From: an uncultured Pseudobdellovibrionaceae bacterium | Lineage (GTDB): Bacteria; Bdellovibrionota; FAC87; UBA2466 | NCBI GenBank assembly: GCA_964616705.1 | Contig: CAZTRP010000001.1 | Location: 314,381-378,380 of the forward strand | DNA length: 64,000 bases | Direction of reading: 5' to 3' | Shown: positions 2,703 through 37,754 of the stretch, piece by piece | Numbering within the stretch: position 1 is the first letter of the stretch | Layout of the letters: each line of letters begins with the position of its first letter | The notes under the pieces: model-generated | Database searches by the model: none | Told to the model about the DNA's origin: nothing | Seen by the model: only the letters and a program-made list of their open reading frames with translations | Position numbers and translations under genes: made by a program

Positions 2703-3419
2703 GTGCGTTTTTTGTTTGGGCTATTGTTCATTTTTTCTACTCAGCTTCACGCTACCAAATGTTGGAACGACGCCGACATTGATGAAATTCTTACTGACCG
2801 AGTCGTTACGGCTATCCGGGCCTCTCGTGAAATTCTGCCTGTCAATATCGACCCAAGTTTTGCCGCAATGGAGGGGCCTCTCGCGCGTGGTATTGTCGGC
2901 GCTGGCCTAGAAAAACACCTCGAAGAATATTCAGATGCTTGGAATTGCCCAATCTTCGTTCGCTTTCTAAAGAACACCGCGGCTCGTCTTGAAACGTTTG
3001 ATCTTGCCGAAGTTGATCAGGCCGCTGATGAAGTCCAAATCACCCCGGATGATTTAGAGGCCATAAAAAATTCCAGAATAGCGCTAAAAAGAGTGGCGCT
3101 TCTTTTCCCTAAAATTCCGGCTGGCTTCCCAATACCTCAGTCCACCCCATACGATTATCCCAAATTCTCTGCAGATTGGGCGACTTGGTCGCCGTTAGTT
3201 AGGACCTGTGTTCTTTCTAGCATGGCGAACGCAAAACTCTTCACAAGCGAAATCGAAATAATTAACCTCGCATTGCACTCAATAGAATCCCCTGAACTAG
3301 TTGGGCTAGTCTCGAGCCTTTTCGCTGAATTTGCCGAGATGACCGGAAATTCAAAAGTATCGCTTGAGCAGTACGGGAAGGGAGGCCCGCCGCCCGAGCC
3401 CCCGCCTTCCGCACCCTAG
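2703..3419 (+). CDS. Hypothetical secreted protein
   Basis: 238-aa ORF with a purine-rich RBS (GGAGG) and signal-peptide-like N-terminus; no family recognised. Confidence 0.6.
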   Translation: MRFLFGLLFIFSTQLHATKCWNDADIDEILTDRVVTAIRASREILPVNIDPSFAAMEGPLARGIVGAGLEKHLEEYSDAWNCPIFVRFLKNTAARLETFDLAEVDQAADEVQITPDDLEAIKNSRIALKRVALLFPKIPAGFPIPQSTPYDYPKFSADWATWSPLVRTCVLSSMANAKLFTSEIEIINLALHSIESPELVGLVSSLFAEFAEMTGNSKVSLEQYGKGGPPPEPPPSAP

Positions 3420-3880
3420 TACTTATAGCAAGTAAGATTTGCCGCTACAGCAGGGCTCAAGGTGTGCGCCAACACGAGATCTGTATCTTTTGCTGGACGC
3501 CCTTTTCCGCGAGACTCAACCAACACATTGGACAAATTCGGACGAGTTCCAAAAACACCAGCGGCTCGACCGTAACCATACTGCGCACAAATCCAATGGC
3601 TAATAGTAGTAGTATCCATACCTACCCGAAGGTCTGGATAGATCTCCGTTCCGTAACCAAAGTCCGCGCTAAAAACAAAACGCGGGGCAAGAATTTGCGC
3701 CCGATTTAGAGCGCCAATTTCGCTTACCTTATCGGCCACTAGTTCGCCGCGAATAGAATCTGGCGTTACAGGACGCACAGTAACAGGCCCGAGCTCGACT
3801 GCTGGAGTCGACACCACCGGCTGCGCGCCAAAGGAAGCTAAACAGAAATACATACCAACAAACACAGATAATTTTTTCAT
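3416..3880 (-). CDS. Hypothetical secreted protein
   Basis: MKKLSVFVGMYFCLASFGA signal peptide; 154 aa; no family recognised. Confidence 0.6.
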   Translation of the reverse strand: MKKLSVFVGMYFCLASFGAQPVVSTPAVELGPVTVRPVTPDSIRGELVADKVSEIGALNRAQILAPRFVFSADFGYGTEIYPDLRVGMDTTTISHWICAQYGYGRAAGVFGTRPNLSNVLVESRGKGRPAKDTDLVLAHTLSPAVAANLTCYKY

Positions 3881-4004
3881 TGTTACCCCAACCCAATTAA
3901 TTTACTGATGTCTGCGCGGTGAAAATAGCTACCACGAAGTGTGTGGTAAGGCGGGCAAGCCGTCAAACGCGGTACGTTATGAGTCTTGGGGGACGATTCA
4001 GCAC

Positions 4005-5900
4005 TTACTCGAAATACGTGTAACCCAGCATTCCTGCTTCATAGAACTCTAAAAGCTCACGCGCTTGTTGAGGAGTAAGACTTCCCACTCGCATGGCCTT
4101 GTCGGCATCGCGGCGCATACGACTTACTAAGTCTTCTGGAACGTATTGCAGATAAGACAAAACTTCTCGAACCGAGTCGCCATCGATGACTTCATCAATG
4201 CTCGGCTTTCCATTTTCATCCAGACTTACGTGCACCGCATTTGTATCGCCAAACAGGTTGTGCAAATCGCCGAGCGTTTCTTGATACGCCCCAAGCAAGA
4301 ATGCCCCCAAATAATAAGGCTCTCCATTTAGCGCGTGGGTCTCTATTGCCTCTTTTGCTCCTACTGCCGAGGGAAAACTATCGATCTTTCCATCTGAGTC
4401 GCAAGTGAGATCTGCCAATATCGCTCGGCGCGTGGGCACTTCGTTTAACCGATGAATTGGCATGATGGGAAAAAGCTGCTTGATGGCCCAACTATCGGGC
4501 AGAGACTGAAACACTGAAAAATTACAAAACAGCGTATCGGCCACTTGCTTTGAAAGATGGTGCAGGTCTTCTGGAATAAAATCGAGCTTCTGCAAAATCT
4601 CGTAAAGTTGAGAGTGAAATGCACGCGAGAGATTTTCCGCAAGTGCGCGCATTTCTAAAGTGACATGGCCCAGGCTAAAAGCACTTAAGGTTTCCTCAAG
4701 TGCGCGCGTAGCATCGTGGTAAGCCTCCACGACTGTCTGGGGTTTCAGATTGTGAATCGCGTCCATCAGATCAAACAACGGCCTAGGCGCATCCTCTGGA
4801 ATTCCTTTAGGGACTTCGTAGGAGCGCCCCTGAATGGAGCCGATTGCTTCAAAAACCAACACACTGTTATAGGCCATTAGCGCCCGGCCCGACTCCGAAA
4901 CAAGTGTGGGATGGGGCACGCCTGCCTCGTCGCAGTTTCGCATTATTCGGTATACGACGTCGTTCGCATACTCTTGTAGCGTGTAGTTCATCGACGATTC
5001 GAAATTGGACTGCGAACCGTCGTAGTCGATACCAAGCCCGCCGCCCACGTTCATGTAACCCATCGCAGCACCGATGCGATAAAGCTCGGTGTAGACATGA
5101 GAAGCCTCATCCAAGGCTCTTTTGACGTTTTGTATATTGGTAATTTGACTGCCTAAGTGAAAGTGCAGCATCACCAAACTATCAGCGAGGCCCCGCTCTT
5201 TTAGGTAAGCCACTGCTTCAAGCAGTTCGTTGGTAGTGAGTCCAAACTTGGAACCCGCGCCCGCGGAACCCTGCCACCTTCCCGAACCCCGCGCAGCAAG
5301 CTTAGTGCGAACACCGAGAACCGGACGAACACCCAACTCCTCGGCGATTTTCACCAAGGTTTTTAATTCCTGAAACTGCTCAACCACCGGAATCAATTTC
5401 CTGCCGAGCTTCTGCCCGAGCACGACCATTTTCAGAAACTCTTCGTCTTTAAAGCCATTACAAATGATCGGCGTTTCAGGACCAGCCAATGCGAGAACAG
5501 CGAGCAGCTCAGGCTTTGAACCAGCCTCTAGACCAAAGCCCAAGGGCTCCCCGAAACGGACGACTTCCTCCACCAGGTGCCTTTGATGGTTTACCTTGAT
5601 GGGATAGGCGCAAAAGTATCCGGCTTTGTAGCCATGGTCTCGAATGGCTCCATGAAAAGCTCCATGGATTTCATTCATCCGATGTCGGAGGATGTCGCTA
5701 AAACGGACTAATACCGGAGGCTCTACCCCCCTAGCGCGAAGAAGCTGAACCAGCTCGTACAAATCAATCGGTGTTTTATCGTCCTGCTGAGGACGAATTG
5801 CGACGTTTCCCTGGCTATTGATAGTGAAATAGCCACTCCCCCAGCGATCGACATTGTAGGTGGATAGGGCCGACTTGATGTCCCAGTTCTGTTTTTGCAA
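4005..5900 (-). CDS. speA: Biosynthetic arginine decarboxylase
   Basis: PLP-lysine motif AYPIKVN, GLEAGSKPEL, HFHLGSQI, VGGGLGIDYDG, SESGRA, DLTCDSDG, GAYQETLGDLHNLFG. Start set at TTG 5900 (AGGAG upstream), which avoids overlap with fabH. Confidence 0.95.
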   Translation of the reverse strand: MQKQNWDIKSALSTYNVDRWGSGYFTINSQGNVAIRPQQDDKTPIDLYELVQLLRARGVEPPVLVRFSDILRHRMNEIHGAFHGAIRDHGYKAGYFCAYPIKVNHQRHLVEEVVRFGEPLGFGLEAGSKPELLAVLALAGPETPIICNGFKDEEFLKMVVLGQKLGRKLIPVVEQFQELKTLVKIAEELGVRPVLGVRTKLAARGSGRWQGSAGAGSKFGLTTNELLEAVAYLKERGLADSLVMLHFHLGSQITNIQNVKRALDEASHVYTELYRIGAAMGYMNVGGGLGIDYDGSQSNFESSMNYTLQEYANDVVYRIMRNCDEAGVPHPTLVSESGRALMAYNSVLVFEAIGSIQGRSYEVPKGIPEDAPRPLFDLMDAIHNLKPQTVVEAYHDATRALEETLSAFSLGHVTLEMRALAENLSRAFHSQLYEILQKLDFIPEDLHHLSKQVADTLFCNFSVFQSLPDSWAIKQLFPIMPIHRLNEVPTRRAILADLTCDSDGKIDSFPSAVGAKEAIETHALNGEPYYLGAFLLGAYQETLGDLHNLFGDTNAVHVSLDENGKPSIDEVIDGDSVREVLSYLQYVPEDLVSRMRRDADKAMRVGSLTPQQARELLEFYEAGMLGYTYFE

Positions 5901-5940
5901 ATCTTCTCCTAGAGGACGACTTTCGGCTTCGGATACTACA

Positions 5941-6969
5941 TCAATAACGCAACACTGCCGAGGCCCAAGTGTACCCGCTCCCAAACGCCGCCATGGCCAC
6001 TCGCATTCCAGGCTTCAAAACTCCTGCGCCGATGGCATCGTACATTCCAAGCGGAATCGTAGCGGCGGTGGTGTTGCCGTATTTATGTATCGTATTAAAG
6101 ACCTTCTCACGCGGAATCTTAAGCTGCTCAGCCACAGCTTCATTGATTCGAAGATTTGCCTGGTGAAATAGAAACAGGTCAATTTCCTCAAACCCCAATG
6201 AATTTTTCTCTAAGCCTTCCTTAAGTACCTGGCCCATGCGCGTTACAGCCTCGACGAAGACTTTCTTTCCGTCCATTTTGGGGTAGACCAGGCCTTCATC
6301 GATCATGGCGTGAGTAATGCGCTCTTCGCCGTCCATGGCAGGTCCAGGGGCGGGAATCCAGAGGTTCTTGGCCCCACTGCCGTCAGCGTGCAAATGGGTA
6401 GAATAAATATGAGGGTCTTTCTTGTGATCAGCGACCTGGGTAGCACTCATAATCACCGCCCCCGCGCCATCGCCAAAAAGCACTGTGACGTCGCGACCTC
6501 GAGTGGTCTTGTCTAAACCTCGGGAGTGAATTTCTGAGCCTACTACAAGTACGTTTTTGTACATGCCGGTGCGAATGTATTGGTCCGCCACCGACAAAGC
6601 GTAAATAAAACCCGAACACTGCTGGCGAATATCCAAAGCTGGAATGCCTGGAACGCCCATCTTCTCCTGTAGAAACACCCCATTTCCCGGGAAAAAATGG
6701 TCTGGGTTCAAAGTAGCGTAGATAATTAGGTCTATCTCGCCTTTATCTAGGCCCGCGTTTTCCAGCGCTATTTTCGAAGCTTCCAGAGCCAGATCAGCGC
6801 TGGTTTGGGAAGGCAGGGCCCACCGACGTTCACGAATTCCAGAGCGTTGGGAAATCCACTCATCCGACGTGTCGATTAACTTTTCCAAATCGGAATTGGT
6901 CACAACGCGAGGGGGAACATACGCTCCCACCCCAACTATTCTGCTGCGCCGCTCCTGATTCAAAACCAT
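5941..6969 (-). CDS. fabH: 3-oxoacyl-ACP synthase III
   Basis: DTSDEWISQRSGIRERR; Cys-His-Asn catalytic triad in QQCSGF, HQAN and YGNT; C-terminal FGSGYTW. Confidence 0.9.
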   Translation of the reverse strand: MVLNQERRSRIVGVGAYVPPRVVTNSDLEKLIDTSDEWISQRSGIRERRWALPSQTSADLALEASKIALENAGLDKGEIDLIIYATLNPDHFFPGNGVFLQEKMGVPGIPALDIRQQCSGFIYALSVADQYIRTGMYKNVLVVGSEIHSRGLDKTTRGRDVTVLFGDGAGAVIMSATQVADHKKDPHIYSTHLHADGSGAKNLWIPAPGPAMDGEERITHAMIDEGLVYPKMDGKKVFVEAVTRMGQVLKEGLEKNSLGFEEIDLFLFHQANLRINEAVAEQLKIPREKVFNTIHKYGNTTAATIPLGMYDAIGAGVLKPGMRVAMAAFGSGYTWASAVLRY

Positions 6970-7095: not shown

Positions 7096-8148
7096 ATGAA
7101 ATCCAAGTCACCGCACCCATTTCTATTCCCCCTATTTCTAGCCGCGAGCTTTGCTTCATCTTCCCTCCTTCATGGGAACGAAGCCTCACAGAACACCAAA
7201 GCCCCAGAGAACTGCGCTTCTGAAATGGTCCGCTACCAAAAACTGATTCCGAACGTAATCGGAATAGTCCACCCCCTTCCCAAGTCTGGGTTGCGCGGCT
7301 TTGGCAGACGGCTAGGGCAATTCCTAGAGGAATCCATCAATGGGGTTCGTCGTTTCCCCCATGAATTTCCTAGAAAGAATGCTTCGTCCGGTGAATTCGC
7401 CGTCCCCCCTGGATTTCTCCCGTTCCTCGACCGACTGGTCCGCCAGAAGAATACCCCTCAAGAGGATCTCCCCTCGTGGTTGGCTTCCTTGGTGCCGTTG
7501 GATCATGAAGCGGTTTTCTACTTGTTAATGGGCGACGGAAATGCCCGTATCGTCCTTCGACGCGGCAGAAATGATGCCTGGGAATTTTGCCACTCAAAAT
7601 GGTCGAGGGTTCCCTTTCATGAGAGTGCTTGCAGCTTCAATGGCCGACTTACAACCCACAACGAAGTGGCGAATTCCTCCTCAGAAGTACGACCGAGCCC
7701 AGACAGCTCTGCGTTACAAATGTTGGCGCACCAAGTGCAAGTTTTTCACGCTTCGCTTGCGCCAGCATTGGCAAAGATCTACCGAGAACCAGAATATAGA
7801 AACTGGCTCTCGGTGCTAGGGCCTTCGGCTCGTGATGACTGGCAAATTAACGAGCTTTTTGCCAAAAGCGTTGGCACGTATTCCTTTTCAAGTGGCTTCA
7901 TAGAAAACTCGGCGCAGCCACTGAATCACAGCGAAGAAATGGCCATACAAGCGATCAAGAAACTCGCTGAGGACAAGAGGTTTTTTGCTTACTTTCAGAA
8001 CCAAGAAGTTCAGGACAGTCAGCAGCCCGCTCAAAAAGCAGCGCCCCCTCCATTGGTCCGCACTTTCAATTTTGTTCCGTCGCTCATAGGGGCCATGGTG
8101 CGCGCGGACTACCGATATGATCCGAAAGGCTGGATTCGACATCGGTGA
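7096..8148 (+). CDS. Hypothetical secreted protein
   Basis: 350-aa ORF with a signal-peptide-like N-terminus; no family recognised. Confidence 0.6.
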   Translation: MKSKSPHPFLFPLFLAASFASSSLLHGNEASQNTKAPENCASEMVRYQKLIPNVIGIVHPLPKSGLRGFGRRLGQFLEESINGVRRFPHEFPRKNASSGEFAVPPGFLPFLDRLVRQKNTPQEDLPSWLASLVPLDHEAVFYLLMGDGNARIVLRRGRNDAWEFCHSKWSRVPFHESACSFNGRLTTHNEVANSSSEVRPSPDSSALQMLAHQVQVFHASLAPALAKIYREPEYRNWLSVLGPSARDDWQINELFAKSVGTYSFSSGFIENSAQPLNHSEEMAIQAIKKLAEDKRFFAYFQNQEVQDSQQPAQKAAPPPLVRTFNFVPSLIGAMVRADYRYDPKGWIRHR

Positions 8149-8233
8149 TGACTTGTTATGTGCTTGTATTTTCGAGGACTTACACAAAATAAGTTGTCCA
8201 GAGATTCGTTCTGAAGTACACCCTCGCCCACCT

Positions 8234-9142
8234 ATGTTGCGCGTTTTCTTTCTGAGTTTCATTTTCTCGAGCTTGGCTTTTGGATCTGGCCGAATTGATT
8301 CGAGGCTTTGTGCCTCACTTCTTACCGACGCCAACATCCTGTTGGGTTCCTCTACGGGCGCCATCAAAACAGGGCTTGAACTAGTAACCGATCTTTATGA
8401 GTGGGCCGGGCGACCTGTATTGGACGCTAGCAGCACTAAAGCTCCCGACGTATCGAGAACCATTCACTGGACGCACGCAGCGGAAGAAGCAGACTTGCTT
8501 GAAGACTTAGGTTTGTTCCGAGTATTAAGCCTCCCACAGCGACGCGCAATCGGACGCCGCTTGCGATTGGTCGAAGCCGATTTAGCCTCTAAGTCTCCGG
8601 GACCGACGTTTACAGCGACGGGGGACGAAGCTGTTTTGGAAATGACGAATAGACTACTAACCAACGCAGCTCCGTCCCAAGAGACAAAGGATGATTTGGG
8701 ATGGGGCCCGCATTTGCCGCTTACTTTGGCTGCGGGTATCACCGGGATAATTGCCTCGACACTGGGTGCACAATTCTACCTTCTTCCATTGCTGGATGAG
8801 ACAACTACCGCGATAGGCGAAGGAGCCGAATTGTTAAAAGCTTCGTGCGTTGGCGTAACATCGGCTGGCGGTTTAAGCGCCTTGGCCGGCTACTTCTGCT
8901 CTAAGTATCTTGGGAAAAATAATTTTCATACGTTTCTCTCGGACGTGAAAACCGCTACCGAGAATCAGCAATCTGCCATTTTATATTTCGGTGGAAGCAT
9001 TCAAGATCCAAACCCAAATGGGACAGAAGATCTTCGCCTTGATGCGTTTTCGTTTGTACCAGGGGCGACCAGGGAACGTGTTTTGGTAATTCACATTACC
9101 CGCACCGGTGAACACTGGCTCCTCAGGCGGCTGGTTTTTTAA
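8234..9142 (+). CDS. Hypothetical exported/membrane protein
   Basis: Start moved to ATG 8234 (MLRVFFLSFIFSSLAFG signal peptide); two hydrophobic segments in the C-terminal half. Confidence 0.6.
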   Translation: MLRVFFLSFIFSSLAFGSGRIDSRLCASLLTDANILLGSSTGAIKTGLELVTDLYEWAGRPVLDASSTKAPDVSRTIHWTHAAEEADLLEDLGLFRVLSLPQRRAIGRRLRLVEADLASKSPGPTFTATGDEAVLEMTNRLLTNAAPSQETKDDLGWGPHLPLTLAAGITGIIASTLGAQFYLLPLLDETTTAIGEGAELLKASCVGVTSAGGLSALAGYFCSKYLGKNNFHTFLSDVKTATENQQSAILYFGGSIQDPNPNGTEDLRLDAFSFVPGATRERVLVIHITRTGEHWLLRRLVF

Positions 9143-9152
9143 AACGATTCCC

Positions 9153-9773
9153 TTATATTTTCCTCTGCAATCCAACTACCTTTCCCTGCACTTGAAAGCT
9201 CTTATCCGTTACTCGAATGGGTTTCATTTTGCTGTTTTCGGGAACAAGTAACACGCCAGTTTCTGTTTCGACGTATCGCTTTACAGTGGTTTCTCCTGCC
9301 ACTAGGGCGACGATAATGTCTCCACTTCGAACGCGCCTACCTCGTTCAACAATCAGAATATCCCCCTCTAAGATCCCTACCTCGATCATGCTATCGCCCA
9401 CCACTCGCAAGGCGAAGCTCGGGTCTTTCGCAATTTCCTCAGAAATCATAAGAGCCCCAAGTTCAAGCTGGGGGGTTTCTCTTGGGGAGCCGGCCGCGAT
9501 TTCGCCATAAATGGGAATGAGTCTGGTTCTTGTGGGACGATAATTTGCCGGGAACAAGCCTCGGGCCTTGCGCTTTAGGTTCTTATTTTTGGAGTCTTCT
9601 AAGTGTCCCTTGCGGACCAATGCTTTGACGTACCCTTGCACTGACCCCACGGCCTTGAAACCAAAATGCTCCTGGATTTCTCGGTAAGAGGGGGGCGCCC
9701 CGCGGCTAACGCAGGTCTCTTTGATATACGAAAGAACCCGCGCTTGAGCCTGTGTTAACGCTTCTTTCTTCAT
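9153..9773 (-). CDS. lexA: SOS repressor LexA
   Basis: N-terminal wHTH (LTQAQARVL...PPSYREIQEHFGF), Ala-Gly cleavage site (EIAAGSP), catalytic Ser (GDSM) and Lys (TVKR). Confidence 0.95.
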   Translation of the reverse strand: MKKEALTQAQARVLSYIKETCVSRGAPPSYREIQEHFGFKAVGSVQGYVKALVRKGHLEDSKNKNLKRKARGLFPANYRPTRTRLIPIYGEIAAGSPRETPQLELGALMISEEIAKDPSFALRVVGDSMIEVGILEGDILIVERGRRVRSGDIIVALVAGETTVKRYVETETGVLLVPENSKMKPIRVTDKSFQVQGKVVGLQRKI

Positions 9774-9797
9774 TGTTCGCTTCCCACTTGCACCCAC

Positions 9798-9817
9798 ATA
9801 CATACAGATGTATGTAT
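9798..9817. promoter_or_regulatory. Perfect 9-2-9 palindrome, candidate LexA operator
   Basis: ATACATACA-GA-TGTATGTAT lies in the 50-bp gap between the divergent lexA and imuA start codons. Confidence 0.6.
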
Positions 9818-9823
9818 ATATGA

Positions 9824-10348
9824 GTGAGCACTCTATTGTCTAGTAATTCCTACGCTTTCCAGCCCAGGCAAGCAAAAGGCGGCTTAATTCAAGTTCTGCC
9901 CAGCCTTTCTTCACGCATCCGAGTCACGCTACAGCGTGCCATCACCACCGCCAAAACCGAAAAAGACCTCTTTCTGTGGATAGCAGATGAAGGTGTGCTT
10001 TACGCTGAAGCCATTCACCAAATGGGTGCACTTCCCCTGTCTCGACTCCTACTCATTCATGCCCCCAGCGCAGAAGAAGTTTGGCGGACGGGAATGGAAT
10101 CTGCCCAAACTGGCTTGTTTCACTTTCTTTTCTTCAAAGCCTCTCGTCCCTGCTCAACTCCCTACTTAAGAAAACTGCAACTTATTGCCCAGAAGAATCA
10201 GTGCGAAATTTTTCTTCTGACACACACACCACTCCCCCACTGGACGTTAAAAGAAACATTAGGAGATACAGACGGTGCGAACCCTGTACATAAAAAGTCC
10301 TCAGCCCATGCTGGCACTCGCCGAGAGCTGCTTCACTCTTACGCCTAA
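9824..10348 (+). CDS. imuA: ImuA/SulA-like degenerate RecA-fold protein
   Basis: First gene before imuB-dnaE2; LSRLLLIHAP...VWRTGMESAQTGLF...LRKLQLIAQ resembles ImuA; no Walker A motif. Confidence 0.6.
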   Translation: MSTLLSSNSYAFQPRQAKGGLIQVLPSLSSRIRVTLQRAITTAKTEKDLFLWIADEGVLYAEAIHQMGALPLSRLLLIHAPSAEEVWRTGMESAQTGLFHFLFFKASRPCSTPYLRKLQLIAQKNQCEIFLLTHTPLPHWTLKETLGDTDGANPVHKKSSAHAGTRRELLHSYA

Positions 10349-11513
10349 GGTTTCGCTTTGCAGCCCCTTCGAGCTGTATCTTGAAGTTGCTTGCACCAGC
10401 AACGTCTTCGGCGGTGAAGAGGGGCTTTTACAAAAAGCAGAGACACTTTTTGAAACTTTTAATTGTGGCCCCTACCGAAAAGTTCTTACTGATAGGCCGG
10501 AATGGGCAAAAGCACTGGCACAAGAAACCGACGTACTACTTCCGCCTGGCAAAAGCGCCGAATTCTTCCGATGGCTCAACATAGAAAAACTCAGCCTAGT
10601 AGGAGACCCTTTCTCCAACGAAGATGAGGTGAAAGAAAAAACTCGCCTAGTTTCTTTTATGAAAAAGGTGGGAATTCGCACCTGCGGAGATTTTTTAAAC
10701 CTCCCAGTTTCTTCAGTGCACCAACGCTTTGGAAAGCTGGGAGAAACTTTACATGACTGGGCTAGTGGCCGACGCCAGCTTTGCCTACCTATTTTTCAAT
10801 CAGAAGAACCCTTGTGCGAACACCTTGATGCCGACGAGTTGCATTCTTTTGATGCCCTGCTTTTTTCACTAAGACAAACTCTCATTCGACTACAAATCCG
10901 CCTACAAGGCAGGGCAAGAGCAGGCAAAAAAATCCGTCTTACATTCAATTTCGAATCTCATCCGGCAGTCACAAAAATGCTCGATCTGAATGAAGGCACA
11001 CAAGAGGCACAAGTGCTTTTGCGTGTTTTAAAAGAGTTTCTTGCTGGGTTTAAGTGGGAGTCTCCTCTAGTGCGACTAGAAATGGAAATGCTAGACCTGA
11101 TTCCACATCAAGCTGGCCAACTTTCACTATTAGACGATTCGGAAAATCGCTTTGCAGACCTAGCCCAATATGTAGCGCGACTACGTGCTCGATTTGGAGA
11201 AGACCATGCAGGATTTGCCACTCTACAAAACAGCCATCTCCCCGAACACACCAGCAAACTCAAATGGCCCCCCTCCCCCGATCCTAATCCGAGAGAAGAC
11301 TTCCCCCTACGCCCGTTATTTCTTTACAGCGAACCAAAGCCTTTTTCTCCAACTTCCCAATGGGACTTAATTCATTCGGAGAATTTGCACGTCGAGTGGT
11401 GGAATGCTGGCGGCCAACGCGAGTACTTCATCGCAAGAAACCAAACACAGTGCTTATGGGTTTACCGCGATAGCGTAACTAGAAACTGGTTTATCCATGG
11501 CAACTTCAACTAA
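10275..11513 (+). CDS. imuB: ImuB, inactive Y-family polymerase accessory protein
   Basis: VGIRTCGDFLNLP...QRFG thumb/HhH region and the typical ImuB C-terminus REYFIA...LWVYRD...WFIHGNF; overlaps the dnaE2 start. Confidence 0.85.
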   Translation: MRTLYIKSPQPMLALAESCFTLTPKVSLCSPFELYLEVACTSNVFGGEEGLLQKAETLFETFNCGPYRKVLTDRPEWAKALAQETDVLLPPGKSAEFFRWLNIEKLSLVGDPFSNEDEVKEKTRLVSFMKKVGIRTCGDFLNLPVSSVHQRFGKLGETLHDWASGRRQLCLPIFQSEEPLCEHLDADELHSFDALLFSLRQTLIRLQIRLQGRARAGKKIRLTFNFESHPAVTKMLDLNEGTQEAQVLLRVLKEFLAGFKWESPLVRLEMEMLDLIPHQAGQLSLLDDSENRFADLAQYVARLRARFGEDHAGFATLQNSHLPEHTSKLKWPPSPDPNPREDFPLRPLFLYSEPKPFSPTSQWDLIHSENLHVEWWNAGGQREYFIARNQTQCLWVYRDSVTRNWFIHGNFN

Positions 11514-14500
11514 AGTCCCTTTTGCCGAGCTGGCGGCCAAGACTAGCTACTCTTTCTTGGAGGGGGCCTCACACCCTGAGGAAATGGTACTAGCCGCTAG
11601 CACAGCTGGATATGAAGCCATTGCCATTACCGACGCTTTCGGTGTTTACGGCGCTCCCAGAGCACACGTGGCTGCAAAGGCCGGAAACTTTCCACTTGTC
11701 GTCGGGGCGGAAATTCCAATCAATGGAAAACCCTTTAAGCTTCTTGCTAAAAATAGAAATGGTTATGGAAACCTTTGTGAACTGCTCACCATTGCACATG
11801 AAAACAGAGAAAACCCCAGCCTGGACTGGGACAAAGTGCATGAAAAACACAAGGGCCTCTTTCTCCTCATTCCTTCTTCGCTAGAGTTAAGCGAGGAATT
11901 TCGGCCAACTCTTTCAGTATTTGAAAACAATTGCGCCTTATTGGTTAGCACCTCTCAAAATGGCAGCGACTCCAGAAGAATTCTCCAGGCCGAACAGCTC
12001 TCTAAGAAATTCAACCTAAGAGTAGCCGCAAGCAATGAACCTCTGTTTCACACCCCCGAGAGAAAACCTCTTCAAGATGTACTTACCTGCATCCGTCTCA
12101 ATTGTTCTCTTGCAGAAGGGGGGCTTCGACTCCTTCCCAATGCGGAACGCTACATAAAACCTTTACCCGCACTACAAAAGCTCTTTGCCTCTCATTTAAA
12201 CTGGCTTGAAAACAGCGCAGAAATCGCAAGCGATTGTCGTTTTTCGCTCGATGAGATTCGTTATCGATACCCAACCGAATGGATTCCAGCAGGCGAAACT
12301 GGCGACACTTACTTAGAAAAGCTTGTCTACCAAGGAGCCAAGCAGCGCTATGGAGAAAATCTGCCTAATAAGGCAAAGGAAACCATCCAGCATGAGTTGC
12401 AACTCATTCGCGAACTAAAGTATAGCGATTACTTTCTTACAATATGGGACATTGTCACTTTTGCCAGGACACAAGGCATTCTTTGCCAAGGAAGAGGTTC
12501 CGCCGCAAACTCTGTTGTTTGCTACGTGCTCGAAATCACTTCTATCGACCCAGTACATCTGAACTTACTCTTTGAAAGGTTTATCTCTCGAGAACGAAAC
12601 GAGCCACCCGACATCGACATAGACTTCGAACACGAACGAAGAGAAGAAGTTATTCAGTACATATACCGACGCTATGGCCGACACAGAGCAGCTATTACTG
12701 CTGAAGTAATTTGCTTTCGGAAAAAATCTTCCCTACGCGAAGTGGCTAAGGTTTTCGATATCCCCGTCGATAAAGTTGAGAAGATTCAAACCCTCTCCCA
12801 TCGCAGAAAGCTTTCCGAAGTTCCCGATTCAGACTGGAATGAGACTTTCAGCGAACTTCCCGCTCATAAAGTTTCTTTATATCGAGACCTCGTTCAATCC
12901 CTGATTGGCTTTCCCAGGCACCTAGGAACACACGTAGGCGGCTTTGTTTTGTGCCAAGAAGCTCTTACCAGAAACGTCCCCATTGAGAAGGCCGCCATGG
13001 CAGATCGAACCATCGTTCAGTGGGACAAGAACGACTTAGATGCCCTTGGGTTTGTACGAGTAGATATTCTGGGACTCGGAATTCTTACAGCGATTAGAAA
13101 GAGCTTTGACTACATTAAACAAACCGAAGGCATCTCCCTATCGCTTGCAACAATTCCCCAGGAAGACCCCCAAGTGTATGAGCCAATCTGTAGGGCCGAT
13201 ACGGTGGGAGTGTTTCAAATAGAATCTCGCGCCCAAATGAATATGCTTCCAAGGTTAAAGCCGCGAACGTTTTACGACTTGGTCGTAGAGATTTCACTGG
13301 TGCGCCCCGGTCCCATACAGGGCGATATGGTGCATCCGTATTTAAAACGCAGAACAGGCGAGGAATCGGTTGAGTATGCCCACCCATTACTAAAAGGCAT
13401 TCTGGAAAAAACCTACGGCGTCCCACTTTTTCAAGAGCAAATCATGAAAATGGCCATGACGGTTGCCGGCTTTACTGGCGGCGAGGCAGACGAGCTACGT
13501 CGCGCCATGGGATCTTGGAGAAGAGATGGAGCAAACCGACTAGCCCCCATTGGAGAGCGATTTCGAAAGGGACTCGTCAACCGTGGAGTCAACCCTGAAT
13601 ATGCCGAACGAGTCTTTCACCAGATACAAGGGTTTGCTGAGTATGGGTTTCCCGAATCCCATGCGGCTTCTTTTGCAGTACTGGTTTATGCCACAGCCTA
13701 TTTAAAGCGCTATTTTCCCGCCGCCTTCTTAACTGGCCTGTTGAACGCTCAACCCATGGGATTCTACAGCCCACACTCTTTAATTCATGACGGCAAAAGG
13801 CACGGCATTGAAGTGCTTCCCGTCGATATTCAAAACTCCCGCTGGGATAATCTTCTGGTATCAAAACACCAAGTTCGCTTGGGATACAGACAGATTAGAG
13901 GAATGAAAAAGCGCGTTGGAGAGGCCCTCGAAGCCGCTCGAACCCGAGGCGGCCCATTTGTCAGTTTCGAAGACTTTCTCGAACGATTACTCGCAGAGCT
14001 TCCTTTGAATACCCTAACCAAGCGAGATCTTTTTCTCCTAGCTGGTGCAAACGCTTTTGACTGCCTAGGCCTAGAACGCCGAATTGCCTTTTGGAAAATT
14101 CAAGCCCTCTGTCTTACTGATAGCGACCTTTTCTCTGCACCAACTGAAGCGGTAGCTCTTAAGAAAGAAACAAACTGGGAAAAAATTTCGGCAGATCATG
14201 AGGCTCAGGGCGTCTCTCTACACGCACACCCTTTGGCGCTCTTTAGAACTGAACTCACAAAACTTCGAGTTCTAAGTTCCCAAGACTTAGCCGCGCAAGC
14301 TGAAAGGCGCTTAGTGCAGGTGGCAGGCTTAGTGATATGCCGGCAAATGCCCCCCACTGCCTCAGGAGTGCTTTTTATTACACTAGAAGACGAAAATGGT
14401 TTTACGAATTTGGTGGTGTGGAAGAAGGTTTTTGAAGCTTATCGAGAAACTCTACTAACACAGTCTTTTTTGCGTTGCGAAGGCAGGATCCAGAAGTCCA

Positions 14501-14595
14501 AGGGTTCAAAGGTTGTCCACTTAGTAGTGGAAAAAGCTTTTCCTCTTTTGGAACTTTCTCAATCTCCTGCCTTCGCCTCACATGATTTTCACTAG
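11497..14595 (+). CDS. dnaE2: Error-prone DNA polymerase DnaE2 (ImuC)
   Basis: PHP start FAELAAKTSYSFLEGASHPEE, QGRGSAANS, PPDIDIDFEH, FPRHLGTHVGG, GFPESHAASFA, OB fold, and DnaE2-specific C-terminal SHDFH. Confidence 0.95.
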   Translation: MATSTKVPFAELAAKTSYSFLEGASHPEEMVLAASTAGYEAIAITDAFGVYGAPRAHVAAKAGNFPLVVGAEIPINGKPFKLLAKNRNGYGNLCELLTIAHENRENPSLDWDKVHEKHKGLFLLIPSSLELSEEFRPTLSVFENNCALLVSTSQNGSDSRRILQAEQLSKKFNLRVAASNEPLFHTPERKPLQDVLTCIRLNCSLAEGGLRLLPNAERYIKPLPALQKLFASHLNWLENSAEIASDCRFSLDEIRYRYPTEWIPAGETGDTYLEKLVYQGAKQRYGENLPNKAKETIQHELQLIRELKYSDYFLTIWDIVTFARTQGILCQGRGSAANSVVCYVLEITSIDPVHLNLLFERFISRERNEPPDIDIDFEHERREEVIQYIYRRYGRHRAAITAEVICFRKKSSLREVAKVFDIPVDKVEKIQTLSHRRKLSEVPDSDWNETFSELPAHKVSLYRDLVQSLIGFPRHLGTHVGGFVLCQEALTRNVPIEKAAMADRTIVQWDKNDLDALGFVRVDILGLGILTAIRKSFDYIKQTEGISLSLATIPQEDPQVYEPICRADTVGVFQIESRAQMNMLPRLKPRTFYDLVVEISLVRPGPIQGDMVHPYLKRRTGEESVEYAHPLLKGILEKTYGVPLFQEQIMKMAMTVAGFTGGEADELRRAMGSWRRDGANRLAPIGERFRKGLVNRGVNPEYAERVFHQIQGFAEYGFPESHAASFAVLVYATAYLKRYFPAAFLTGLLNAQPMGFYSPHSLIHDGKRHGIEVLPVDIQNSRWDNLLVSKHQVRLGYRQIRGMKKRVGEALEAARTRGGPFVSFEDFLERLLAELPLNTLTKRDLFLLAGANAFDCLGLERRIAFWKIQALCLTDSDLFSAPTEAVALKKETNWEKISADHEAQGVSLHAHPLALFRTELTKLRVLSSQDLAAQAERRLVQVAGLVICRQMPPTASGVLFITLEDENGFTNLVVWKKVFEAYRETLLTQSFLRCEGRIQKSKGSKVVHLVVEKAFPLLELSQSPAFASHDFH

Positions 14596-16112: not shown

Positions 16113-16188
16113 GGGCCCGTAGCTCATCTGGGAGAGCGCCACAATGGCATTGTGGAGGTAGCGCGTTCGATCCGCGTCGGGTCCACCA
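16113..16188 (+). tRNA. tRNA-Ala(GGC)
   Basis: Acceptor stem GGGCCCG/CGGGTCC with the G3:U70 Ala identity pair; anticodon stem CCACA/TGTGG with loop AT-GGC-AT; T-loop TTCGATC; CCA encoded. Confidence 0.97.
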
Positions 16189-16232
16189 ATTTTGCCTAAT
16201 TTATAAATAATTCCAATATCTTAATAAAAATT

Positions 16233-16255
16233 TGCGCTACCTCGGAGGTAGCGCA
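16233..16255. repeat. Perfect 11-1-11 palindrome built from the tRNA motif GAGGTAGCGC
   Basis: TGCGCTACCTC-G-GAGGTAGCGCA; 16244-16254 is identical to tRNA positions 16154-16164. Confidence 0.85.
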
Positions 16256-16313
16256 GGTACCCACAACTTCCCATAACTCTTGGGCAGAAGTACGCTGTTT
16301 ACGCACAAATCTT

Positions 16314-16346
16314 GTGGACCAGACACGGATCGAAAGCGCTACCTCC
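16314..16346 (-). repeat. Inverted copy of the tRNA-Ala 3' half
   Basis: Reverse complement GGAGGTAGCGCtTTCGATCCGtGTCtGGTCCAC is 30/33 identical to 16154-16186. Confidence 0.9.
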
Positions 16347-16383
16347 TAAATAGGTGGCCGTTTACATTTTGCAAGGAAGATTA

Positions 16384-17178
16384 ATGGCGAATACAACCTA
16401 CAGCTTCACAGAGGATACCAAAGCAGTCGCCTTTATAGACATTCTTGGTTTTTCTAACATTAGCTTGAAAGCCTCGACAGAACCCCTCGGAGACGCGGGG
16501 CTGGCAATACATCTTTTCGAAAACTGCATCGACCGCAATCGTTCCAAGATGATGCGGTGTTTTCCGCGTGAGGTGCCAATCGGCAAACATGTCGAAGGCC
16601 AGAATTTTAAAGTAGCTAGCGTTTGGCACAAAGAAGTTCCCGAAGGAGCGGTGAATTTTTCCTACATGAGCGATTGTGCTGTCCTGTACAGCAATTCGCT
16701 TACACATCTATTCGAAATAGTTTCAGACATTTTTGGTACGGCTATTACGCGAGGAGTGCCGCTTAGAGGTGCAATCGCGATGGGTGCCTTGTTCCACTCT
16801 GAATCTGGGCAGCGGCCGGGAACCGGCATCTGCCTCTATGGAGATGCCTTAACACGTGCGGCAATTTTAGAGAGAGCGGTTCATGGCGCCGGGATGCGCG
16901 TGTGGCTTGATCCGCCGGTAGTCGAGTTAGCAAAAAATACAAATTTGGGAGCATTTATTCGTGAGGGCAGCTGTCGGAAACCGGCCGAATTGAAATGGTG
17001 GTTACAAGCTTACGAACCCGGGGGACCGAGACAGACGGAAAGCGCAGAAATGGAATGGCAGTTTGGGAGATGGTTCACCGAAAAATTCACCAGAAAATGG
17101 TTCAAAGGATCCAACTGCCGACACACAAAAAAAGTCATAGCTCTAGCAGTGAAAGAGCTGCGGGCTCTCGGTCGCTAG
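16384..17178 (+). CDS. Class III nucleotide cyclase-like (palm fold) protein, uncharacterised family
   Basis: VAFIDILGFS (first metal Asp), YMSDCAV (second Asp), PLRGAIAMG and LYGDALTRAAILE follow the order of adenylate/guanylate cyclase motifs. Confidence 0.7.
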   Translation: MANTTYSFTEDTKAVAFIDILGFSNISLKASTEPLGDAGLAIHLFENCIDRNRSKMMRCFPREVPIGKHVEGQNFKVASVWHKEVPEGAVNFSYMSDCAVLYSNSLTHLFEIVSDIFGTAITRGVPLRGAIAMGALFHSESGQRPGTGICLYGDALTRAAILERAVHGAGMRVWLDPPVVELAKNTNLGAFIREGSCRKPAELKWWLQAYEPGGPRQTESAEMEWQFGRWFTEKFTRKWFKGSNCRHTKKVIALAVKELRALGR

Positions 17179-17225
17179 ACGATTCGAAACTATTGGACTT
17201 CAGTTTCTCGTGAAAGGAATAGGGA

Positions 17226-18053
17226 ATGCGTGCTTGCGTAGCTCTAGTAGACAAGTTTCGGGTAAAGCTGGTGACGCGTAAGGAAATACCGCCACCAGAA
17301 CTATTCCACTTCACCTCAATATCAGCAGCCACCTCGATTTTAACTCATAAGCAACTTCGAGCGACAGGATATGAAGGACTAACTGACCTGGAGGAAATTC
17401 GACACGGCATCCAACTATTCGCCGAAGAATTACAGAGAAACAAATTTTCTTTTTCAACGAGGCCCAATGAAGTGCGTGGCGCATTAATTCGACTACTGCA
17501 TAAAGAGCGAGATGCGTTGCGAATAAATTGCTTCATAACTTCTTTCTCATCAGTTGAATCAGAAAAGCATTGGAAGGATTATGGCCAGGAAGGAAAAGGA
17601 GTATGCCTAAGATTCAAGTCGGAGGTCTTCAAAGAAAATTTGTTGTATAAAGTTGTGTATGATCTCTCCCAGAAACTCTCAGTCGTAGCAGAAACGTTAA
17701 ATAACATACAAATTCTCGCCGATAAAATTTCGAAAACCAGACATTCTTGTCCGAGATGCGTTGATCAGATGGCGAACATAATACTTACTGCTGCAGTCGT
17801 TCAATCAGCTAAGTTCAAAATTGCCTCACATGATCTAGATAGTGAATGGCGTCTGATCCAGTGGATTAAAAGAGACAATAGTGAGAGTAAAAAGGGCCAC
17901 GCACGAGGACGCGACTATGAGTATCTAGACTGTGATCTTCTATTAACGGACGTGGCTGACAACCCAATTTCACTTGAAGCCGGACCCCGTTCTGATCCGA
18001 ATCACATAGAAAACCTGAAACAGTTACTCTTCTCAGCGAAAGAAACCTCTTAA
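17226..18053 (+). CDS. DUF2971-like protein
   Basis: LFHFTS...ILTHKQLRAT...LTDLEEI, CFITSFS...HWKDYG..GKGVCLRF, LYKVVYD, K...DSEWRLI match the DUF2971 pattern. GTG at 17270 is an alternative start. Confidence 0.7.
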   Translation: MRACVALVDKFRVKLVTRKEIPPPELFHFTSISAATSILTHKQLRATGYEGLTDLEEIRHGIQLFAEELQRNKFSFSTRPNEVRGALIRLLHKERDALRINCFITSFSSVESEKHWKDYGQEGKGVCLRFKSEVFKENLLYKVVYDLSQKLSVVAETLNNIQILADKISKTRHSCPRCVDQMANIILTAAVVQSAKFKIASHDLDSEWRLIQWIKRDNSESKKGHARGRDYEYLDCDLLLTDVADNPISLEAGPRSDPNHIENLKQLLFSAKETS

Positions 18054-18118
18054 AGGAGTCGCGCCGAACTATTTGACATATCCTTCTTAACTATTTGAAA
18101 GCGTGGTATTTGTTGCCT

Positions 18119-18151
18119 AGGTAGCGCCTTCGATGGTCGTCGGGTCCACCA
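18119..18151 (+). repeat. attR-like direct copy of the tRNA-Ala 3' end
   Basis: AGGTAGCGCcTTCGATggtCGTCGGGTCCACCA versus the tRNA AGGTAGCGCGTTCGATCCGCGTCGGGTCCACCA. Confidence 0.85.
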
Positions 18152-18175
18152 GCTTAAACCCAAATTTAGAACTTA

Positions 18176-37680: not shown

Positions 37681-37754
37681 CGGGGTGTAGCGCAGCTGGC
37701 TAGCGCGCTTCGTTCGGGACGAAGAGGCCGTGGGTTCAAATCCCGCCACCCCGA
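37681..37754 (+). tRNA. tRNA-Pro(CGG), CCA not encoded
   Basis: Acceptor stem CGGGGTG/CACCCCG plus A73; anticodon stem CTTCG/CGAAG with loop TT-CGG-GA; T-loop TTCAAAT; followed by TAT instead of CCA. Confidence 0.95.

Follow-up and report, generated by a model that had tools for sequence, protein, structure and literature searches.

The 64,000-nucleotide stretch of DNA analysed here, which we call the window (positions 314,381 to 378,380 of contig CAZTRP010000001.1 from an uncultured Pseudobdellovibrionaceae bacterium), contains a short islet that lies at a tRNA-Ala gene, is bounded by attachment-site (att)-like repeats and carries two genes. Gene 1 encodes a protein whose predicted structure resembles class III nucleotidyl cyclases, and gene 2 encodes a protein assigned to the DUF2971 family. 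An earlier note on this DNA had proposed that the pair constitutes one system, either of the cyclic-nucleotide type or resembling a toxin-antitoxin pair. The evidence gathered here argues against a two-gene system, because homologues of the two genes did not co-occur in any of 20 independent contexts outside this species. We consider it probable that the locus is a degenerate tRNA-Ala islet of ~1.9 kb with two functionally independent, single-gene accessory modules that are adjacent by juxtaposition. The features of the locus are as follows.

16113..16188, plus strand: tRNA-Ala gene (anticodon GGC), the integration target, identified by ARAGORN and scoring 52.9 bits against Rfam RF00005 in a local scan
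16156-16188: attL-like repeat copy, formed by the 3'-terminal 33 nt of the tRNA-Ala gene
16233..16255, strand not applicable: perfect palindrome with 11-bp arms and a GGAGGTAGCGC core in common with the tRNA
16306..16351, minus strand: inverted, diverged copy of the tRNA-Ala 3' end, identical at 38/46 positions to 16149-16194
16384..17178, plus strand: gene 1, encoding a stand-alone protein of 264 aa
17179..17225, strand not applicable: 47-bp spacer with the gene 2 ribosome-binding site GAAAGGAA
17226..18053, plus strand: gene 2, encoding a single-domain, divergent DUF2971 protein of 275 aa
18119..18151, plus strand: attR-like direct repeat of the tRNA-Ala 3' end, the distal boundary of the islet

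The outline drawn in the earlier note holds, in that two co-oriented genes, 47 bp apart, are the whole cargo of an islet bounded by the tRNA-Ala gene and a repeat identical to its 3' end at 29/33 positions; between the repeats, no ORF (open reading frame) with homologues was found besides gene 1 and gene 2. A comparison of the tRNA 33-mer with both strands of the 64-kb window returned three sites at ≥22/33, namely the tRNA itself, the direct repeat at 18119-18151 and an inverted site at 16312-16344, and because just these three sites reach that level, the direct repeat is not a product of chance. No integrase or recombinase Pfam family was found in the islet or in ~10 kb on either side, where several neighbours had no Pfam match of any kind. 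No empty site was found, and all 13 contigs that carry the flanking 379-aa gene and reach far enough upstream hold the islet. The most fitting description of the islet is that of a degenerate remnant of a tRNA-Ala integration, which lacks an integrase and has diverged att copies. The inverted copy at 16306-16351 is probably a relic of another integration or of a rearrangement, and together with the palindrome, which on the minus strand is scored as a terminator-like hairpin, it may point to several successive integrations or to a cassette that can invert or has been rearranged. Within the 47-bp spacer, neither a plus-strand terminator-like hairpin nor a sigma-70-like promoter was found, and the two genes are for this reason probably co-transcribed.

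Further details of the integration site were recorded. The G3:U70 pair is visible in the tRNA-Ala sequence. Both genes are flanked by inverted copies of the tRNA-Ala 3' end, at 16306-16351 and 18112-18157. An Rfam run over the whole window at the gathering threshold reported only a tRNA-Pro (37681-37754) and missed the tRNA-Ala, whose local score compares with a gathering score of 29; this miss probably arose from filtering in the large search. Short AACTATT(T/G)GA repeats follow the stop codons of both genes; as cassette boundaries they were discounted, being at the level expected by chance. Several metagenomic contigs of the same species (among L013, L017-L019 and L022) break off at a distance of 229-257 nt upstream of gene 1, and one stops 118 nt upstream of the flanking 379-aa gene. 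These ends fall at the tRNA and att copies; the assembly may have broken at repeats, or the population may be heterogeneous at the islet.

The base composition of the two genes differs. Gene 2 has a GC content of 0.426 and a GC content at third codon positions (GC3) of 0.391, the lowest among the 39 ORFs of ≥250 aa in the window (mean 0.509, standard deviation 0.038), and the intergenic pieces of the islet have a GC content of 0.40-0.42. Gene 1, with a GC3 of 0.502, is at the window average. The earlier description of the islet as partly AT-rich is thus accurate for gene 2 and the intergenic pieces, and the GC3 values of 0.502 and 0.391 indicate different histories for gene 1 and gene 2.

The exact gene 2 protein was found only in contigs of the same species and in the same arrangement (13 metagenomic contigs with identical ORFs). 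These contigs are no independent evidence on the pairing, and independent contexts of each family were therefore examined. For gene 1, ten contexts were available (L001, L003, L006, L007, L008, L009, L010, L023, L030 and L032). The homologue in L007 (60% identity) lies divergent from a CBASS-type operon comprising SMODS, E2-CBASS and Sa_NUDIX genes and convergent with a response regulator (2746-5145 and 5580-6407). In L010 (298-2836) and its counterpart L011 the homologue is preceded by an MqsA-like antitoxin gene, itself preceded in L011 by a DUF4258 gene, forming a toxin-antitoxin-like pair. An AAA_14 ATPase gene is located 636 nt upstream of the homologue in L006; L001/2 has a recombinase-like fragment upstream and signal-peptide proteins downstream; L003-5 has a NUDIX gene upstream and a recombinase fragment downstream; and L008 contains IS66, resolvase and lipoprotein genes. 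The remaining contexts are a phage-like run of small ORFs (L009), a short contig (L023), Citrobacter plasmids with phage-type genes (L030/31) and a Sporosarcina plasmid (L032). When the neighbours from the metagenomic contexts L001-L010 were compared by all-against-all blastp, no common partner emerged, and the DUF2971 HMM (hidden Markov model) had no match in the ten gene 1 contexts. In L007 and L032 the gene 1 homologue is monocistronic, because its neighbours on the two sides are oppositely oriented (one divergent, one convergent), and the downstream gene is convergent in four of the nine contexts in which it is visible.

Two annotation details concern these homologues. The homologue P0007 in L006 (5716-6630), annotated as a 210-aa protein in a metagenome-assembled genome (MAG), seems to be N-terminally truncated in that annotation, the open frame having the full family length (464.8 bits with the HMM of alignment A1). 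The distant gene 1-like gene is intact in L030 (6007-6870, 287 aa), a Citrobacter freundii plasmid, and is split into ORFs of 180 aa and 84 aa in L031 (6007-6871), a second Citrobacter freundii plasmid.

The ten independent DUF2971 contexts (L025, L028, L029 and L033-L039) comprise three metagenomic look-ups and seven annotated plasmids. In L035 (plasmid At of Agrobacterium fabrum C58, 1-4828) the DUF2971 gene lies 26 nt downstream of qatABCD, with an integrase and VapBC nearby. It is found beside a HEPN_Toprim gene in a conjugative element in L028, after an ImmA/IrrE-type gene in L029, behind a small regulator in L034 and after a P4-like int-alpA pair in L036; it is isolated in L025, and the other copies are located on an E. 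coli plasmid (L033), on a Prescottella plasmid where the relative is annotated as a 'putative T/A toxin' (L037) and in plasmid accessory regions (L038 and L039). HMM scans detected no gene 1-like ORF in these ten contexts, and no cyclase is annotated in them. Gene 1 relatives recur near defence or mobile-element genes, and several DUF2971 relatives sit in defence or mobile-element settings. The expectation that both families lie near defence genes was thus borne out (CBASS, Qat, a Shedu-like gene, toxin-antitoxin pairs and a P4-like integrase module), and the proposal of a single system was not, as the homologues never share a context.

Gene 1 starts at the ATG at 16384, which is preferred over an in-frame GTG upstream at 16354, lies behind an AAGGAAG ribosome-binding site and matches the N-termini of homologues. 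A minus-strand ORF of 108 aa (16381-16707) lies wholly inside the gene. The protein consists of a class III nucleotidyl-cyclase-like palm core (residues ~1-175) and a helical C-terminal extension (~177-261) that is specific to the family and contains conserved WW and W-F motifs. No match to gene 1 was found in Pfam, NCBIfam, PADLOC or PDB sequences (none at E≤1 in Pfam and PADLOC-DB 2.0.0), and the only library match was phrog_23933, a PHROG of unknown function (E 4e-7). The cyclase family PF00211 matched one of 10 gene 1-family members (E 0.14) and not gene 1 itself at E≤1, and the gene 1 profile retrieved no cyclase from PDB sequences. A TRIAP1 match to the C-terminus (E 0.8) was dismissed as noise.

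The family is rare. Among 5.8 billion clusters, 13 homologues were found with 47-61% identity; they come from metagenomes and from MAGs labelled Pseudobdellovibrionaceae and Verrucomicrobia, and the 61%-identical one is from a Pseudobdellovibrionaceae MAG. One further homologue, at locus L023, was present among 241 million metagenome records; it was the only new locus that the metagenome and genome collections added, the genome match L024 being the same contig as L009. Distant homologues with ~27% identity occur on the Citrobacter plasmids with phage-type genes and on the Sporosarcina plasmid (A1 HMM, E 3e-12 and 3.5e-11). The gene 1 profile found no relative in 2.9 million viral contigs, and tblastn of the gene 1 and gene 2 proteins against 50,697 phage genomes gave no match.

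An AlphaFold model of gene 1, built on the family alignment, has a predicted local distance difference test score (pLDDT) of 86.3 and a predicted template modelling (TM) score of 0.89. In a Foldseek search of the PDB with this model, the top 50 matches were all class III adenylyl or guanylyl cyclase domains (E 4e-7 to 1.5e-5; target-normalised TM score 0.5-0.69), and 119 matches had E≤1e-3. Among viral models, a phage protein with a COG4252 sensor domain ranked first (E 3.1e-7), and phage and giant-virus proteins annotated as guanylate cyclase domain-containing ranked third and fifth (E 1e-4 and 4.9e-3). As judged from its model, gene 1 is a class III cyclase-like domain, in agreement with the earlier description of the gene as cyclase-like.

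The conserved residues of gene 1 are D19, S96-D97, R128, G134, H138, G153, E163 and R172, and the class III cyclase motifs that had been noted earlier are present (FIDILGFS at 17-24, MSDCAVLYS at 95-103 and PLRGAIAMG at 126-134). F-I-D19-I-L-G-F fits the motif of the first metal-binding Asp, S96-D97 lies on the hairpin of the second Asp, and R128-x5-G134 fits the R-x5-G spacing of cyclases. Both D19 and D97, which are equated with the metal-binding Asp residues by motif and fold and not by a significant alignment, are invariant across the close homologues and the 27%-identical plasmid homologues. With a catalytic-domain query of Rv1625c that is identical to PDB entries, hhalign pairs VPLRGAIAMG with VPLRVGLATG and LYGDALTRAAILER with VWGDAVNVASRMES, at E 0.015 and a probability of 3%. 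In this pairing the transition-state Asn and Arg (G-D-x-V-N-x-A-x-R) are tentatively replaced by T157 and I161 in gene 1; position 161 is variable, mostly Glu, in the family. The Lys/Asp or Glu/Cys pair of substrate specificity is not evident in gene 1 in alignment A1 and the low-confidence alignment with Rv1625c. A two-metal nucleotidyl-transfer reaction is plausible for gene 1, and we presume the protein to be catalytically competent; canonical cyclase chemistry is not established.

Gene 2 carries the motifs given in the earlier note (HFTS at 28-31, TSFS at 105-108 and DSEWR at 205-209). In Pfam, DUF2971 (PF11185) was the only family to match it at E≤1, with E 0.0015 and 20.3 bits, below the gathering cutoff of 22; NCBIfam, PADLOC and PDB sequences gave nothing, and PHROGs gave only families of unknown function. 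A k-mer-seeded search retrieved no relatives of gene 2, and an exhaustive HMMER search retrieved 743 representatives at E≤1e-3 among 1.84 billion, the best with 31% identity (E 6e-35). In alignment A2, 29 of the 30 sequences, all except gene 2 itself, match PF11185 at E≤1e-3; precomputed annotation likewise assigns relatives to PF11185, and those on plasmids are annotated as 'DUF2971 domain-containing protein'. Despite its own borderline Pfam score, gene 2 can be placed in DUF2971 because its relatives match, or are annotated as, PF11185, and sequence comparison identifies it as a very divergent member of this known family. All invariant residues of A2 are kept (D54, E57, W116, Y119, Y145, K198, E207, R209 and G253), and H28 is present in the family motif L-x-H-[FY]-T, so that the key residues are H28-F-T30 and D205-S-E207-W-R209. 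The length and architecture of gene 2 are those of solitary DUF2971 proteins. It has no transmembrane segment (maximum 19-residue Kyte-Doolittle score of 1.22), and Pfam at E≤1 detected no domain that binds cyclic nucleoside monophosphates (cNMPs) and no SAVED, CARF or other sensor domain.

The enzymatic assignment of gene 2 draws on the literature of its family. DUF2971 proteins are predicted to be H-Y-E-clade ADP-ribosyltransferases that are akin to DarT and AbiGi and have large helical inserts, and effector or stress roles have been proposed for some of them (PMC12522546). Aristaios, a 316-aa DUF2971 protein encoded by the gene pUCCL641_199 of a Lactococcus plasmid, confers protection as a single gene with an abortive-infection phenotype (PMC11381338); its model resembles an ADP-ribosyltransferase and phage transcription is affected (PMC11381338, PMC13064643). 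Candidate H-Y-E residues are present in gene 2 (H28, Y119/Y145 and E207). The part of the earlier note that placed gene 2 in DUF2971 stands, and the ADP-ribosyltransferase activity that it proposed is predicted mainly from the published work (PMC12522546, PMC11381338), our own structure and profile tests pointing only weakly to DarT.

These data are compatible with the following model, in which the two genes act independently. Gene 2 would be an NAD+-dependent, Aristaios-type ADP-ribosyltransferase of the H-Y-E/DarT-like kind that needs no partner, as suggested by the family literature. It would be inactive until phage infection and, once triggered, would modify DNA or another nucleic acid or a transcription-related target, by which the infection would be aborted. 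Gene 1 would most likely be a soluble, dimeric enzyme that carries out two-metal nucleotidyl transfer on a nucleoside triphosphate (NTP), with a palm predicted to keep two metal-binding Asp residues and a phosphate-binding Arg and to lack the canonical transition-state Asn/Arg. It would be carried singly by mobile elements and defence islands and serve either as a self-contained defence gene or as a counter-defence gene. A defence role of either gene is putative.

Several observations weigh against two independent modules, or against the activity assigned to gene 2. The genes are co-oriented, 47 bp apart and not separated by a terminator, and they may be functionally coupled in this lineage. 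In L010, a gene for a 388-aa protein with a weak match to Shedu SduA_C (E 2.5e-4, below cutoff) lies 7 nt downstream of the gene 1 homologue. Because effectors are exchanged in signalling systems such as Pycsar and CBASS, the absence of a conserved partner counts for less here than it would in the case of a toxin-antitoxin pair. The sample of contexts is also small, with ten per family and some contigs ending at the gene. As regards gene 2, the first Glu of the ExE motif is an Asp (D205), which is unique among the 30 sequences. The gene 2 model (pLDDT 86.4) has no significant Foldseek match in the PDB (best E 0.75; Thermus DarT 7omv at rank 5, E 1.4), and the DUF2971 profile, compared with 177,635 PDB sequences, matched only E. 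coli DarT1, at a non-significant E of 1.3. In hhalign, DUF2971 and an alignment of five annotated plasmid DarT proteins align over motif I only (E 3.2e-4, probability 39%).

Of the alternatives, the one that survives best, although we regard it as unlikely, is that one or both genes are unrelated to phage defence, gene 1 having a counter-defence or regulatory function and gene 2 some other role, or both being decaying cargo. Gene 1 relatives are found in the phage-like contig L009 and in the Citrobacter plasmid L030 with its phage-type genes, and the match to phrog_23933 is of the same tendency; the plasmid copy in L031 is broken into two ORFs, the islet no longer has an integrase, and the effector or stress roles proposed for some DUF2971 proteins (PMC12522546) could apply to gene 2. 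However, both ORFs are intact, retain all family-invariant residues and are identical in the 13 same-species contigs, the viral contigs and phage genomes searched contained no gene 1 relative, neither protein has a signal peptide or transmembrane segment, and the neighbours elsewhere are mostly defence or toxin-antitoxin genes.

A two-gene cyclic-nucleotide system resembling Pycsar, in which gene 1 would sense infection and produce a cyclic or other nucleotide signal that activates the gene 2 ADP-ribosyltransferase as a new kind of effector, is in our view quite improbable. The tight, co-oriented arrangement lacking a terminator, the location of both genes in a single att-bounded islet, the retention of both metal-binding Asp residues within the cyclase fold of gene 1 and the nuclease-like gene close behind the L010 homologue are all features that such a system could show, and effector swapping is normal in systems of this kind. 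These features are outweighed by the lack of any co-occurrence in the 20 contexts, by at least two clearly monocistronic gene 1 homologues and the convergent downstream genes, and by the architecture of gene 2, which has no nucleotide-sensor domain and equals that of solitary DUF2971 proteins. In addition, the PADLOC Pycsar models do not match gene 1, its cyclase transition-state Asn/Arg seem to be replaced (in a low-confidence alignment), the GC3 values of the two genes differ, and one DUF2971 protein is known to act alone (PMC11381338). The weakest alternative, a toxin-antitoxin-like pair with gene 2 as a DarT-like toxin and gene 1 as its antitoxin or immunity protein, would suit the two-gene, co-transcribed layout, the usual need of DarT-type toxins for an antitoxin and the annotation of the Prescottella plasmid relative, but is very improbable given that gene 1 relatives occur in ten contexts with no DUF2971 gene and hence are no dedicated antitoxin, that ten DUF2971 relatives have no gene 1-like neighbour, that DarG antitoxins are macrodomain proteins (as beside DarT in L043) whereas gene 1 is cyclase-like, and that a high-copy vector carrying Aristaios alone could be obtained (PMC11381338).

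For gene 1, a more specific proposal can be put forward, which we regard as speculative and on balance doubtful: that the family is a new nucleotide-based immune or counter-immune enzyme of mobile elements, either self-contained or feeding a downstream effector. If self-contained, it might convert or deplete NTPs, or produce a signal that is read by its own C-terminal domain. As a signal generator, it might instead feed whichever effector follows it, a DUF2971 protein here and a Shedu-like nuclease in L010; if true, this would be the first signalling pair of a cyclase and an ADP-ribosyltransferase.

Outside the islet, the upstream region (~7200-14595) contains a LexA gene, two unnamed ORFs and a gene for the error-prone polymerase DnaE2 (11497-14595), and its layout suggests an SOS mutagenesis cassette of the imuA/imuB-dnaE2 type. 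Downstream, the kdpABCD potassium-transport operon occupies 21045 onward.

Returning to two independent modules as the preferred reading, these results show that tight adjacency in a tRNA islet is insufficient to call a two-gene system. The combination of a cyclase with a DUF2971 protein is undescribed, as had been supposed, and appears to reflect a juxtaposition that arose once, in a single lineage, rather than a system; the ADP-ribosyltransferase prediction and the defence role of DUF2971 had already been published. Gene 2 adds a very divergent member to a family with one validated defence representative. Gene 1 is the more useful lead, as it has a confident cyclase fold, recurrent defence or mobile neighbourhoods and no fixed partner, and no curated model in Pfam, NCBIfam or PADLOC covers it. 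The new item here is its family, which we describe as stand-alone cyclase-fold proteins of ~265 aa, not previously described, with a seemingly altered catalytic set and a private C-terminal domain. If active, gene 1 would extend the class III cyclase-type enzymes in conflicts between phages and bacteria beyond the cyclase-plus-effector layout of Pycsar.

The locus can be compared with four known systems. Pycsar consists of the PycC cyclase and a cNMP-activated effector with transmembrane or TIR modules. The present locus is similar to it in the class III-type cyclase fold, the defence-island-like context and the adjoining, possibly cell-killing enzyme, and differs in that gene 1 has no PycC match in PADLOC, gene 2 has no cNMP-binding domain and no transmembrane or TIR module, and the pair is not conserved. 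With class III cyclases (PF00211; M. tuberculosis Rv1625c and soluble guanylate cyclase), gene 1 shares the fold, the F-x-D-I-x-G-F motif, the second Asp and the R-x5-G spacing; in contrast to them it has no significant PF00211 match and no sensor or membrane domain, and it has an additional helical C-terminal region of ~90 residues.

DarT resembles gene 2 in motif I (L-x-H-F/Y-T ... L-x-g-I), which aligns between the DUF2971 and DarT profiles, and DarT was both the only PDB sequence match of the DUF2971 profile and the only ADP-ribosyltransferase among the top Foldseek matches, although none of these matches was significant on its own. DUF2971 differs from DarT in its large helical inserts. 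In DarTG systems, the macrodomain protein DarG is encoded beside the toxin, as in L043, where a macro-domain gene follows DarT, whereas the only neighbour of gene 2 is the cyclase-like gene 1. Aristaios is likened to gene 2 by family membership and not by direct sequence comparison: gene 2 is very divergent and has DxE in place of ExE, and no Lactococcus organism was named among its plasmid tblastn matches. Like Aristaios (316 aa), gene 2 (275 aa) encodes a DUF2971 protein with a single domain and of comparable length; it is located on a mobile islet, its relatives occur in defence islands, and it keeps the family residues of Aristaios, namely H-x-T, D..E, W..Y and E-W-R.

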